A stretch of DNA of 64,000 bases from Escherichia phage 212. Below the pieces are notes generated by a model, which was given only the letters and a program-made list of their open reading frames with translations, had not been told where the DNA came from and ran no database searches. Location: sequence record PQ765507; one strand, 5' to 3'. Both the position numbers and the translations under genes were made by a program. Shown piece after piece: positions 20,018 through 23,962 of the stretch; the first letter of the stretch is position 1, and each line of letters starts with the position of its first letter.

Positions 20018-21892
20018 ATGACCGAATTATTGTCAGAGGTTTTTGAAGGGGAATCTAATATCCCGGCCATTAACCTTTCAAAGTCAAAAGTTCCACAGAT
20101 TTGGAATATCCAGGTCCCGGGGAATGATAATCTTATTGCTCGTATGGTGTCTTACGCATCCGAAGGCGATGCTATTAAACAGGTCAAAACTGGCGATAAG
20201 TATGCACACGTTATTTTGATGTCATTAAATTCAAACGGTACTCCAGCTATTCTTAAAGGTGGTCTTGGTGATAACCCGATTGGAGCAATTAAATCCATTT
20301 TTGATGTAGTTTACGAACAAGTAAAACTGATGAAAATGGATGCAATTATGTTCCGCTTCCCGACCCGCAAAATGAAGGGACAAGAACGAACTATTCAGCG
20401 TGTTCTTGCTCGGCTTATTATGGCCCGTGCCGGCGGTCAGTTCAAAGTTCTGGATGATATGTATCAGTACACGGGTAAACATACTTACGTATTGATTTAT
20501 CGTAAATCCAAACCAATTGAATCTATCGCCGGAATTCCTGGCATCAATACCGAATTGTACACAAAAGTGGAATCGAAAGTCGGTGATGTTTATGTAGACA
20601 AAGCCACCGGCGAAACTGTTACCAAGAATGAAGCTATTGCGGCCTCTATTGCAAAGGTTGAAGAAAAACGTACAGACCAGGCAGTTGTTGTTAAAACCAA
20701 GTTTTCTAAACGCGCAGCTATTAACGCATTGTATTCGGGGAACGAACCAACTGGCCTTGCTAAATTCTCACCAGAGCACAAAGAGATTTATACAAAACTC
20801 TCGACCAGTAGCGCAGTGCATTCAGCAGATGATGCCAGAGAAAGTCAGATAGCTAAAGCTTCAATAAAAGTAATCGACCGTGCGGGTGATGAGTATGCAG
20901 ACTATTTTGATTTAGTTGCACAAGGTGGTGTTGGTGAAGATAAGACAAAAACTCGTGTAGCCATGGATGTGTTTAATGCTCTTAAAGAAGTTGGCATGGA
21001 ACACAAAATAAGTGAGTTTTCGAACGTCCTGCGGGCCTCAAAGAATCCTGTTGATACATTGCGCAGAGTTGCTGATATGTTGCTTGACGACTCCATTGTG
21101 GGGACCTGGGCGCGCGAAGATAAGACTAAAGAAGCTATTCGTATTATCGCAGATGAAATTTACACCAAGGCCATCCAACCATTATTTCATATCTCCGACA
21201 ACCCTGAAATAACTGAAGACCAGGCCGAAGCAATTAAGGCATATACTCGCGGAAAATATACTGCAATCAATAATTTCCTGCTAGGGAAAGCTGACGCAAA
21301 AGAAAGCGAAATCAAAATGATTTCCGATATGGATAAAGTATTTGAAAACGGTGTTAAGCTTCCAAAAGGAACTATCATCTACCGTGCTCAAGTCATGCCA
21401 ACCGATATGGCAATTAATTCCATCAAAAATAAAACGATGTATCTTCCTATGTTTGCGAGTACATCTCTGGCGCCAAATATTTTCGGTCGTATGGGCCACA
21501 CCGCTGCGAACCTTGACCCAAATGCATTATCGAGTGATATCGATGATGGGACAATCGATGCAACTATTAAAAGTGCAACTGGTTCGGCGAAACCTACAAT
21601 CAAGATTGGTATGATTATCAAAGGTGCAGAAAATATCAAGGTAGTTATTCCTGGTGACCTGGCAAACTGGTCCGTTGAAACCGAAGTTATTCTTCCACGT
21701 GGAACAATGCTTAAGATTGATAAAGTCTATGGTGCTACAGCTGGCATGATGGGTTCGATGGGTAAATACATTCTCGTTGAATGCTCTATCTTAGAAAATG
21801 ACCAGATAGACGAATCAAATTCGCTTTTGAAAAAATATGACAGAATCTCTTATGATTTGTCTATGGAAAAACTTGTACACCTTCTCAATTAA
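20018..21892 (+). CDS. Alt-like ADP-ribosyltransferase (packaged internal protein), paralog 1
   Basis: 624 aa; late promoter upstream; ART R-S-E type motifs (FASTSLAP, ETEVILPRGT); paralogous to the next ORF. Confidence 0.7.
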   Translation: MTELLSEVFEGESNIPAINLSKSKVPQIWNIQVPGNDNLIARMVSYASEGDAIKQVKTGDKYAHVILMSLNSNGTPAILKGGLGDNPIGAIKSIFDVVYEQVKLMKMDAIMFRFPTRKMKGQERTIQRVLARLIMARAGGQFKVLDDMYQYTGKHTYVLIYRKSKPIESIAGIPGINTELYTKVESKVGDVYVDKATGETVTKNEAIAASIAKVEEKRTDQAVVVKTKFSKRAAINALYSGNEPTGLAKFSPEHKEIYTKLSTSSAVHSADDARESQIAKASIKVIDRAGDEYADYFDLVAQGGVGEDKTKTRVAMDVFNALKEVGMEHKISEFSNVLRASKNPVDTLRRVADMLLDDSIVGTWAREDKTKEAIRIIADEIYTKAIQPLFHISDNPEITEDQAEAIKAYTRGKYTAINNFLLGKADAKESEIKMISDMDKVFENGVKLPKGTIIYRAQVMPTDMAINSIKNKTMYLPMFASTSLAPNIFGRMGHTAANLDPNALSSDIDDGTIDATIKSATGSAKPTIKIGMIIKGAENIKVVIPGDLANWSVETEVILPRGTMLKIDKVYGATAGMMGSMGKYILVECSILENDQIDESNSLLKKYDRISYDLSMEKLVHLLN

Positions 21893-21901
21893 GGGTTAAA
21901 A

Positions 21902-23962
21902 ATGTCTGAACAATTAAATGAACTCTTTGACAAATATATCGAAGCCTTCGGTTATCCTGTCATTAATATGAATCCAAAATACAAGGTCCCACAGGTTTGG
22001 CAATTCGGTGTTCCTGGGACCAATTCTCTTATGGCCCGTTTGATGCAATTCACGGGCAAAGAAACAGTTAAACAATATAAACGTGGTGATGCAATTGCCG
22101 AGGTATTCCTGCTCTCCGGGACTTCACACGGCCACGCTGTTCCTCTGAAGGGTGGTCTAGGTGAAAAACCTCTTGATGCGATTAACCTGATTTTTGTTAC
22201 AGTCTGGGAAAGCATTAAACTAGGCAAACCTGATGTAGTCTTGTTCCGTTTCCCATCCAAAAAGATGAAAGGACAAGACCAAGCTGTTATTCGTATTATG
22301 AATCGACTGATTCAAATGAAAACCAGCGGGCGTTATCATGTTCTTCCGAATGCTTCTGGCCTCGGTAAAAAGAACGCTTATGTAATTATGTACAAAAAGG
22401 GTGTTGACCTGCTTTCGGTTGATGGTATGCCACCAGTCCCTGAGAAATATCAAAAAGTCGAAACTAAAGTCGGTGATGTATTCACTAATAAAGATACAGG
22501 CGCGCAAGTCTCCAAACAAGAAATCGCAGCCGAAGTTCTGATTGACGCAGCAAACAAAAAGACCGATGCTGCTGTTGCCCAGAAAACTAAAATCAGTCGC
22601 CGAGCTATTGCACAAGCCCAGTACGCTCCAAGTGATTCCGTGCCCGATGGCTGGGACGAAATTGATGCAGAAGCTGCTAAGTTTAGTCGACCGGCTACGG
22701 CAGAACTTATCGATGATTATGAAGAACTGGAAATTTTTGTTCGACCTTCTGAAACGAATACTATGGCTCGTATGCGCGCAGCAGATACGGCTATGCGTGC
22801 AAATGGTGTTTGGAAAGAAGAAATTCGTGTTGAAGACTCTGACCCAATTTTTAACCGTATGCATCGTGAACTTAAACGTGCTCCAGTTGGTAGTATGAAG
22901 CAGATGCAGATTTTTGCCGAATCATGTGCAGAGATTCTTAACCTTCGCAAAGCCGCATTTATCGAAAGAAAAATGAATGATGCTCCTCCTAACCTGGATG
23001 CAGCCACTTATGCAGCCACGCTCTGGGAAGAAGAATACACAAGCGCCATTCGTGTTGCAGTTAAAGACTTTGCAGAAGAAGCATCAGAAAATACTCTTAA
23101 TTTCACAGCAGGGTATACTGACAACCGTTTCCATTATGGCCAGCGTGAAGCAATTGCAGATTATTGTGGAGCCAACTATGTCGATATTAATAATTATTTG
23201 ATGGGTAATTATTATGAAGAAGACGCCGAATTCCTAAATCTAGACAGAGTTGTCGAAACAATTAAGGAATTGGATTCGGCCTTTGAAATTGGACATAAGT
23301 TGCCACCTAATACAACTCTTTGGCGTGGTCAATATTTAAACGTTCCTACATTTAATAAAATTAAACAGTCGAAATTATTCTATTTTAGGAACTATGTATC
23401 AACATCATTTAAACCAATTATCTTTGGTGGCTGGGTGGCGAACGTTGCTATGGCCGCAGTTCATCAGGACTATCGCGACGGGACATCTTTCCAGGCTGAT
23501 GACGAAATTGTTTTACCAAATATCCCAGGTGCAAACCCAGACAACGCAATGATTCATGTCGGTTGGAAAATTTCTGGGGCAGACTTAATTAACGTAATTG
23601 TTCCTGGGGAATTGTCAGGCAACCCATCCGAGCAGGAAGTTATTCTTCCACGTGGAACTGTAGTTAAGATTACCAAAATTACGGATGCTTCGTATAAAGG
23701 AAACGCGAACGTCAAAATGCTGGAAGCTGATATCCAGACCACTGACCAACTGGATGAAAATGCAGTTATCTATGATGGTGATGTGTTGATGGAAACTGGT
23801 GAGCTTGTCGTTTATCAGGGCGAGGAAACAGAAGAGCCAGTAGAATCTGTTGACTTTGCATCGTTTGCATCCTCTGGGGTAACGAAGAAAGTCAATCAAG
23901 GTCTTGGTATTCTTGCTAGTTGTATTAATTTGGAAGCTATTCCTCCTAAATTCCTTTCGTAG
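21902..23962 (+). CDS. alt: Alt ADP-ribosyltransferase (packaged internal protein), paralog 2
   Basis: 686 aa, close to T4 Alt (682 aa); motifs YVSTSFKP and EQEVILPRGT; position next to gene 30 as in T4. Confidence 0.75.
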   Translation: MSEQLNELFDKYIEAFGYPVINMNPKYKVPQVWQFGVPGTNSLMARLMQFTGKETVKQYKRGDAIAEVFLLSGTSHGHAVPLKGGLGEKPLDAINLIFVTVWESIKLGKPDVVLFRFPSKKMKGQDQAVIRIMNRLIQMKTSGRYHVLPNASGLGKKNAYVIMYKKGVDLLSVDGMPPVPEKYQKVETKVGDVFTNKDTGAQVSKQEIAAEVLIDAANKKTDAAVAQKTKISRRAIAQAQYAPSDSVPDGWDEIDAEAAKFSRPATAELIDDYEELEIFVRPSETNTMARMRAADTAMRANGVWKEEIRVEDSDPIFNRMHRELKRAPVGSMKQMQIFAESCAEILNLRKAAFIERKMNDAPPNLDAATYAATLWEEEYTSAIRVAVKDFAEEASENTLNFTAGYTDNRFHYGQREAIADYCGANYVDINNYLMGNYYEEDAEFLNLDRVVETIKELDSAFEIGHKLPPNTTLWRGQYLNVPTFNKIKQSKLFYFRNYVSTSFKPIIFGGWVANVAMAAVHQDYRDGTSFQADDEIVLPNIPGANPDNAMIHVGWKISGADLINVIVPGELSGNPSEQEVILPRGTVVKITKITDASYKGNANVKMLEADIQTTDQLDENAVIYDGDVLMETGELVVYQGEETEEPVESVDFASFASSGVTKKVNQGLGILASCINLEAIPPKFLS

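Follow-up and report, generated by a model that had tools for sequence, protein, structure and literature searches.

The ADP-ribosyltransferase (ART) Alt of bacteriophage T4 is carried in the phage head at about 40 copies (PMC9958956) and is injected into the host, where it uses NAD+ to ADP-ribosylate arginines of RNA polymerase and other proteins. The prohead protease gp21 cuts it at ITE-6 and LTE-619, the latter cut removing 63 C-terminal residues, as determined by mass spectrometry (Ali et al. 2017, PMC5694885), and trimming by gp21 is also described elsewhere (PMC9026906). Alt shares the Alt/VIP2 clade of R-S-E ARTs with T4 ModA and ModB (PMC5512222), which are not injected and come later in infection (PMC5512222, PMC9503650). 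Duplication of alt has been reported in 44RR, RB49 and T4 (Nolan et al. 2006, PMC1524935) and in ZZ1, Ac42, JS98 and Bp7 (Jin et al. 2014, PMC4177764). Here, we analyze two adjacent alt genes, altA and altB, in a 64,000-nucleotide stretch of DNA from Escherichia phage 212 (sequence record PQ765507; hereafter the window).

We consider it very probable that altA and altB, possibly together with the downstream alt.-3 homolog, form a late operon of an SP18-type Gaprivervirus and encode two anciently diverged, arginine-specific mono-ADP-ribosyltransferases of the T4 Alt family. Both proteins resemble T4 Alt (682 amino acids, aa) in domain architecture, catalytic motifs, genomic position, late promoter and gp21 motifs at both ends, and AltB additionally in its long C-terminal propeptide (60% identity); overall identity to T4 Alt is nevertheless only 32% for AltA and 36% for AltB. 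Unlike ModA and ModB, both are full-length Alt-type proteins. The tandem arrangement is real but already known: it is annotated as alta/altb in the SP18 and JS98 GenBank records, is common among T4 relatives, and has figured in papers on alt duplication since 2006, so that as a genome feature it is ordinary.

Catalytic site and fold of the paralogs

An initial annotation, made from the letters alone, had read positions 20018-23962 as two tandem Alt-like ART paralogs. Two plus-strand open reading frames (ORFs) are indeed found there:

20018..21892, plus strand: altA, a 624-aa Alt-family ADP-ribosyltransferase of an accessory, short-tailed type
21902..23962, plus strand: altB, encoding a 686-aa ADP-ribosyltransferase of the same family; this is the resident alt of Gapriverviruses

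BLASTP aligns AltA and AltB along their whole lengths (33% identity over 642 columns, E = 1e-86), and each matches PHROG 802 (Alt-like RNA polymerase ADP-ribosyltransferase) from residue 1, with E values of 5e-199 for AltA and 8e-225 for AltB. Identity varies by domain: the N-terminal ~235 residues are 43% identical, in agreement with the shared N-terminal regions noted earlier, the ART domains 30% and the middle regions 12%. A search for ART domains, proposed as a check in the initial annotation, returned Pfam PF03496 (ADP-ribosyltransferase exoenzyme) for both AltA (E = 7e-16, 58.5 bits) and AltB (E = 9e-20, 71.3 bits), against a gathering cutoff of 23.4 bits. PF03496 and PF26846 are both present in all 120 listed homologs, and NCBIfam gave no family match for either protein. 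In each protein, a conserved N-terminal domain is joined by a variable helical linker to an R-S-E ART domain at the C-terminus:

20039..20722, plus strand: AltA conserved N-terminal Alt domain, aa 8-235, PF26846 (Tevenvirinae_ADPRT), with an invariant LKGGLGxxP loop
20723..21202, plus strand: AltA middle region, aa 236-395, variable and all-helical, with 12% identity to AltB and 47% to gp201 of phage WG01
21203..21814, plus strand: AltA C-terminal ART domain, aa 396-599
21383-21385, 21458-21466 and 21677-21685, plus strand: AltA catalytic codons for R456, S481-T482-S483 and E554-x-E556
21923..22615, plus strand: AltB conserved N-terminal Alt domain, aa 8-238
23126..23758, plus strand: AltB C-terminal ART domain, aa 409-619
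23324-23326, 23399-23407 and 23630-23638, plus strand: AltB catalytic codons for R475, S500-T501-S502 and E577-x-E579

All four strings that had been quoted as STS-like and ExE-like motifs are present, FASTSLAP (aa 479-486) and ETEVILPRGT (aa 554-563) in AltA and YVSTSFKP (aa 498-505) and EQEVILPRGT (aa 577-586) in AltB. The catalytic arginine, which had not been named, also occurs in both proteins, as R456 within IIYRAQ and R475 within TLWRGQ. Both C-terminal domains are thus of the R-S-E (C3/VIP2-like) kind and hold the arginine, S-T-S and E-x-E together. Across an alignment of 64 diverse Alts, the first serine of S-T-S and both glutamates of E-x-E are invariant and the arginine is at least 90% conserved. 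At the level of sequence, these comparisons confirm that AltA and AltB are paralogs within the Alt family of ADP-ribosyltransferases and that the R / S-T-S / E-x-E site is intact in both.

Matches to solved structures agree with this assignment. A phmmer search of the Protein Data Bank (PDB) detected no solved Alt: AltB had no match, and AltA had just a marginal one to VIP2. The profile of the 64-homolog alignment recovered CDTa, Certhrax, Vis, VIP2 and iota toxin (E = 1e-6 to 1e-3), and the Y-R and E-x-E/Q-x-E motifs fall in register with CDTa and with the solved ADP-ribosyltransferase 4xsg. AlphaFold2 models have a mean predicted local distance difference test score (pLDDT) of 78.6 for AltA and 80.6 for AltB, with confident ART domains; in AltA the linker is modeled as helices only, and pLDDT is low over aa 600-614. 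Foldseek placed the modeled ART domains with Vis, C3, Certhrax, VIP2 and iota-like toxins (E about 1e-5 to 1e-6, probability 1.00), and the models thus indicate an ART fold in both proteins. The R-S-E toxins themselves (Vis, C3bot, Certhrax, VIP2, iota Ia and CDTa) differ in being only 10-25% identical, secreted and directed at eukaryotic targets, and they have neither the Alt N-terminal domain nor delivery by a phage head.

The state of the catalytic site bears on whether AltA could be a decaying or catalytically dead duplicate, that is, a pseudoenzyme or a purely structural head protein. Its absence from most Gapriverviruses and its lack of the conserved long C-terminal tail would fit such a role. 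However, the AltA ORF is full length and retains R456, S481-T-S483 and E554-x-E556, its ART domain is modeled with confidence, and the WG01 ortholog at 64% identity keeps all of the motifs. Between the window and phage PSD2001, altA shows 55 synonymous and 6 non-synonymous differences, a ratio of non-synonymous to synonymous substitution rates (dN/dS) of 0.03, and for altB among SP18-like phages dN/dS is 0.05-0.18. Both genes are under strong purifying selection, and because of these low ratios we regard a decaying AltA as very unlikely.

Origin of the pair

The 4.2-kb region is 99.4% identical in DNA sequence to Shigella phage SP18 (Gaprivervirus sp18, GQ981382), with the same gene order (ligase, altA, altB, alt.-3, gp54) and few substitutions between them; the SP18 record names the products of alta and altb 'RNA polymerase ADP-ribosylase' (ADO19552/ADO19551). 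The same pair is found in Escherichia phages P896 and PSD2001, labelled only 'hypothetical protein', and the AltA protein is 99.0-99.8% identical across SP18, P896 and PSD2001 (99.7-99.8% to SP18 alta and P896). Most other Gapriverviruses, including VR7, VR20, VR26 and the TH phages, have altB only, and the one Alt protein of VR20 is 97% identical to AltB. The terminator, promoter and ribosome-binding site of that phage match the window almost exactly to within a few bases before the start codon, with altB directly next. On this near-identity upstream, altA and its 9-nucleotide (nt) spacer read as a clean gene-sized indel. AltB is the resident gene of the genus Gaprivervirus, and AltA is a rare, cassette-like accessory that is present or absent among near-identical phages.

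Pairwise identities and tail sequences sort the Alt proteins of these phages and their relatives into three types:

Type I, short-tailed: AltA and WG01 gp201, 64% identical to each other
Type II, tail ...ASCIxL..IP.KF..: AltB, VR20 Alt, WG01 gp200, JS98 AltA, T4 Alt and T2 Alt1
Type III, tail ...KFKM: WG01 gp199, JS98 AltB and T2 Alt2

Domain by domain, AltA stands closer to its counterpart in WG01 than to its neighbor:

N-terminal domain: 71% between AltA and WG01 gp201, 43% between AltA and AltB
Linker: 47% between AltA and WG01 gp201, 12% between AltA and AltB
ART domain: 68% between AltA and WG01 gp201, 30% between AltA and AltB

The initial annotation had taken the pair to be a duplication with divergence. 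Had the genes been duplicated in tandem only recently in this lineage and then diverged rapidly, the adjacency of altA and altB and their shared orientation and architecture would be explained, but the identity matrices contradict this: AltA is 64% identical to WG01 gp201, from another genus, and only 31-33% identical to AltB. Its N-terminal domain is likewise 65-71% identical to those of Dhakavirus Alts compared with 43% for AltB, the three Alt types are seen again in WG01, JS98 and T2, and the T4 annotation itself speaks of an 'old duplication'. We therefore give a recent duplication next to no credence. By these sequence comparisons the altA/altB paralogy is ancient and recent local duplication is excluded, and it is as a gene-sized cassette that altA differs between phages.

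Genes flanking the alt locus are 68-89% identical between Gaprivervirus and Dhakavirus. Because the 64% identity between AltA and WG01 gp201 lies near this baseline, and because gp201, like AltA, is the first gene of its alt array, the two look like positional orthologs. AltB, by contrast, is only 38-39% identical to its type II counterparts in Dhakavirus and, judged by these identities, is an unusually divergent copy.

Tandem alt arrays in other Tevenvirinae (JS98, WG01, T2, Bp7, Ac42, ZZ1 and 44RR) lie at the same locus in the same orientation, and the present phage differs from them in having types I and II without a type III copy. JS98 carries two genes (alta/altb), WG01 three consecutive ones (gp201/gp200/gp199) and T2 two at full length. 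The earlier statement that T4 has one Alt is correct as to full genes, but the single gene of T4 is a reduced state: T4 keeps the remnants alt.-1 and alt.-2, which its annotation traces to an old duplication of the beginning of alt. With AltA as query, tblastn found 1,817 places in 1,221 phage records; of 60 evenly sampled records, 27 had at least two. Since some places may be fragments, these counts are upper bounds on full-length copies.

Divergence along the alt locus is patchy. At 20200-21100 of the window, altA is essentially identical to P896 while 57 bases within 900 bp differ from PSD2001; at 23200-23800, the ART region of altB is 39 bases in 600 bp away from P896 and near-identical to SP18. 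This patchiness indicates recombination between related phages within the locus, and altA itself has probably been gained or lost by recombination. In an uncultured homolog (protein P0020, from a Logan contig of 57,930 bp), the linker is 82% and the ART domain 77% identical to AltB, and the N-terminal domain is not among AltB's closest, which suggests that the N-terminal domain and a linker-ART module have been shuffled between alt genes. Separately, in Escherichia phage DCP80 (PQ671644; 7005-7430 of the locus compared) the second alt gene breaks off at 426 nt, with unrelated genes (rIIA) next. This genome measures only 141 kb, which points to a large deletion, a rearrangement or a faulty assembly.

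Expression, processing and targets

Upstream of the alt genes lies DNA ligase (gene 30), and downstream, beyond the alt.-3 homolog, come the convergent baseplate genes 54 and 48; a late promoter precedes the alt genes, as it does in T4. The elements of this arrangement, and the candidate protease, are as follows:

18421-19959: DNA ligase (gene 30), upstream of altA
19961..19982, plus strand: intrinsic-terminator-like hairpin, AAAAGGGC-TTCG-GCCCTTTT followed by a T run, ending the DNA ligase transcript
19985-19992, plus strand: perfect T4-type late promoter octamer, TATAAATA, 25 nt before the altA ATG and conserved in VR20
20006-20010, plus strand: Shine-Dalgarno-like AAGGA before altA
21891-21895, plus strand: Shine-Dalgarno-like AAGGG before altB, overlapping the altA stop codon
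23994..24317, plus strand: alt.-3 homolog, 107 aa, DUF5498, third gene of the predicted late transcript
24319..24340, plus strand: strong terminator hairpin with a T run, after alt.-3 at the end of the alt operon and facing the convergent gene 54
43161..43799, minus strand: gp21 prohead protease homolog, 212 aa, corresponding to SP18 gp21

The hairpin at the end of the ligase gene was read directly from the sequence; a terminator scan reports the same hairpin on the minus strand, it is identical in VR20, and a conserved terminator upstream of alt was noted by Nolan et al. (2006). The late promoter that the initial annotation had placed before the pair is there, as one promoter for both genes. 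Octamers of this sequence number 20 in the window against 4.08 expected, and on the plus strand from 19900 to altB, allowing at most one mismatch, there is none besides that at 19985-19992 and hence none specific to altB. Since the gap from the altA stop to the altB start is only 9 nt, no second late promoter intervenes and a terminator follows alt.-3, we infer a single late transcript spanning altA, altB and alt.-3. Matches to sigma-70-like promoters (17 against 11.3 expected) are not informative; one lies at 23967-23995, just upstream of the alt.-3 homolog.

Candidate gp21 cleavage motifs occur at both termini of AltA and AltB. In the alignment, the column of T4 ITE-6 holds LSE-7 in AltA and LNE-7 in AltB, and that of T4 LTE-619 holds IDE-599 and LDE-619, respectively. 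Of 73 aligned sequences, 72 have the P1 glutamate at the C-terminal site, and an N-terminal leader of the form M-x(3-5)-[LI]-x-E / [VL]-F-[DE] occurs in 117 of 120 homologs, with LNE as the commonest motif (83/120). Cleavage at these positions would yield the following products:

20018..20038, plus strand: predicted AltA N-terminal propeptide, MTELLSE (L-S-E-7)
21815..21889, plus strand: predicted short AltA C-terminal propeptide, aa 600-624, after I-D-E-599
21902..21922, plus strand: predicted AltB N-terminal propeptide, MSEQLNE (L-N-E-7)
23759..23959, plus strand: predicted AltB C-terminal propeptide, aa 620-686, after L-D-E-619, with conserved YDGDxLMETGE, FxSF and KF
Residues 8-599: predicted mature AltA, 64.9 kDa, isoelectric point (pI) 7.75
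Residues 8-619: predicted mature AltB, 68.4 kDa, pI 5.65

The tails downstream of the C-terminal site differ. That of AltB shows 56-61% identity to its counterparts in T4, T2 and WG01 gp200 and matches PHROG 23966 (E = 7e-32), whereas the 25-aa tail of AltA is unrelated to the long propeptide, including the 63-aa one of T4, and is common only to the WG01 gp201 type. Among 120 homolog clusters, 118 carry the long YDGDxLMETGE...KF propeptide and 2 the short AltA-type tail. The missing propeptide marks AltA as a subtype and does not exclude it from the Alt family.

These features, read by analogy with T4, lend support to a model in which both proteins are packaged, processed and injected effectors, and they strengthen the earlier remark that the pair is consistent with such a role. 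Each Alt precursor would be built into the prohead core, where the gp21 protease encoded in the same window would remove the 7-residue N-terminal propeptide and the C-terminal propeptide (25 aa in AltA, 67 aa in AltB). The mature enzymes, of about 65 and 68 kDa, would stay in the head and be ejected with the DNA, and in the next host would use NAD+ to ADP-ribosylate arginines of host proteins, with the alpha subunit of RNA polymerase as the model target. One or both proteins might instead go unpackaged and act late in the producing cell, given that late expression alone is no proof of packaging and that the AltA C-terminal propeptide is unlike that of T4 Alt. We judge this improbable: both proteins carry the N-terminal leader common to nearly all homologs as well as the C-terminal site, and T4 Alt, with the same features, is present in the head.

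Three considerations nevertheless weigh against our interpretation of the operon. Packaging, cleavage, ejection and enzymatic activity of AltA and AltB are all extrapolated from T4; the assembly or regulation of AltA, which does not have the long conserved C-terminal propeptide, may differ from that of T4 Alt; and divergence in loop sequence is not evidence of changed specificity.

The last point concerns the suggestion, made in the initial annotation, that the two enzymes target different host proteins, for which we put the chances of distinct or partly distinct target sets at roughly even. Several features favor it: the linkers are unalignable and the ART domains only 30% identical, the segment from S-T-S to E-x-E is unlike in both length and sequence, and the loop before E-x-E reads ...DLANWSVETE in AltA, with a tryptophan, and ...ELSGNPSEQE in AltB, with none. 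In addition, the predicted mature pI values lie about 2 units apart, the C-terminal propeptides are unrelated, and altA is under tight purifying selection. Given how strongly linker, active-site loops, net charge and C-terminal propeptide differ, we would speculate that the two target sets are probably not identical.

Leaving the propeptides aside, the same features count against redundancy, in which AltA and AltB would act on practically the same set of host proteins (RNA polymerase alpha and others), the second copy raising dose or robustness; a dN/dS of 0.03 in particular is hard to square with a spare copy. On the other side, E-x-E, the arginine-specific signature of C3-like and iota-like ARTs, is kept in both proteins, T4 Alt alone is promiscuous and already modifies many proteins (PMC5512222), and AltB alone suffices for most Gapriverviruses, which live without AltA. 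Redundancy or dosage is accordingly a possible explanation of the pair, though a doubtful one. The literature we searched yielded no experiment on AltA or AltB and, T2 included, neither a function for a second Alt copy nor virion proteomics bearing on one.

AltA-type proteins are rare, occurring in a handful of Gapriverviruses and WG01-like Dhakaviruses. Strong conservation where present, combined with gain and loss as a cassette, is what one would expect of an accessory gene for host range or counter-defence, and inactivation of the MazF toxin by T4 Alt has been reported (PMC10286901). That AltA serves as an accessory in counter-defence is a reasonable yet speculative idea. For the question of distinct targets, phages that in nature differ only in altA, such as P896 and VR20-like phages, offer a clean system.

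The N-terminal domain and neighboring genes

Within Alt proteins, conservation is highest over the first ~235 residues, where many polar positions are invariant. The assignment of this region to the Tevenvirinae_ADPRT domain rests on the PHROG 802 alignments and on PF26846 matches precomputed for the SP18 protein and the 120 homologs; no function is assigned to the domain in the literature searched. The isolated linker and C-terminal tail gave no Pfam match.

A library-wide phmmer search with the N-terminal domain returned 71 clusters at 50% identity, mostly proteins of 600-712 aa. Among ten atypical proteins that were scanned, six have an ART domain, one of them just under the Pfam cutoff. 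Four proteins (P0174, P0176, P0177 and P0178; 347-1142 aa) match the Alt N-terminal domain in part and have no Pfam-detectable domain in the remainder; they could be fragments or proteins with a different cargo. We considered whether the domain serves as a general delivery module with other cargo and rejected this idea, as neither the 71 clusters nor the ten scanned proteins show a modular-cargo pattern.

In both models the N-terminal domain gave weak matches to GNAT-like folds, and an RNase E subdomain scores equally high. An invariant G-L-G just before the long helix of the domain merely resembles acetyl-CoA motif A (Q/R-x-x-G-x-G/A). The isolated domain has no Pfam match, GNAT included, at E <= 1, and its profile found no GNAT among PDB sequences at E <= 10, returning only a chance S1 match (E = 1). 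Two further points tell against a GNAT reading: the AltA and AltB models share one alignment, and the domain is found chiefly as the N-terminal part of proteins of Alt length, with an ART domain also in most of the ten atypical ones scanned. We therefore treat a GNAT fold as a model-based lead only.

Between altB and the terminator, the alt.-3 homolog matches Pfam PF17602 (E = 1e-33) and PHROG 1739 and is named alt.-3 in SP18. It is probably co-transcribed with altB. At 86-89% identity to the Dhakavirus copies, it is far better conserved than the adjoining alt genes. Two minus-strand ORFs that overlap altB and alt.-3 (22220-22864 and 23615-24313; 214 and 232 aa) have no PHROG match and are unannotated in SP18; we consider them probably spurious. 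Upstream of the ligase gene, the gp30.2 homolog (ORF 17291-18139) contains a 24-bp tandem repeat at 18019-18082, present in 2.6 copies and encoding YNPAYPYQ; SP18 is one 24-bp unit shorter, giving a protein of 274 aa there and 282 aa in the window.

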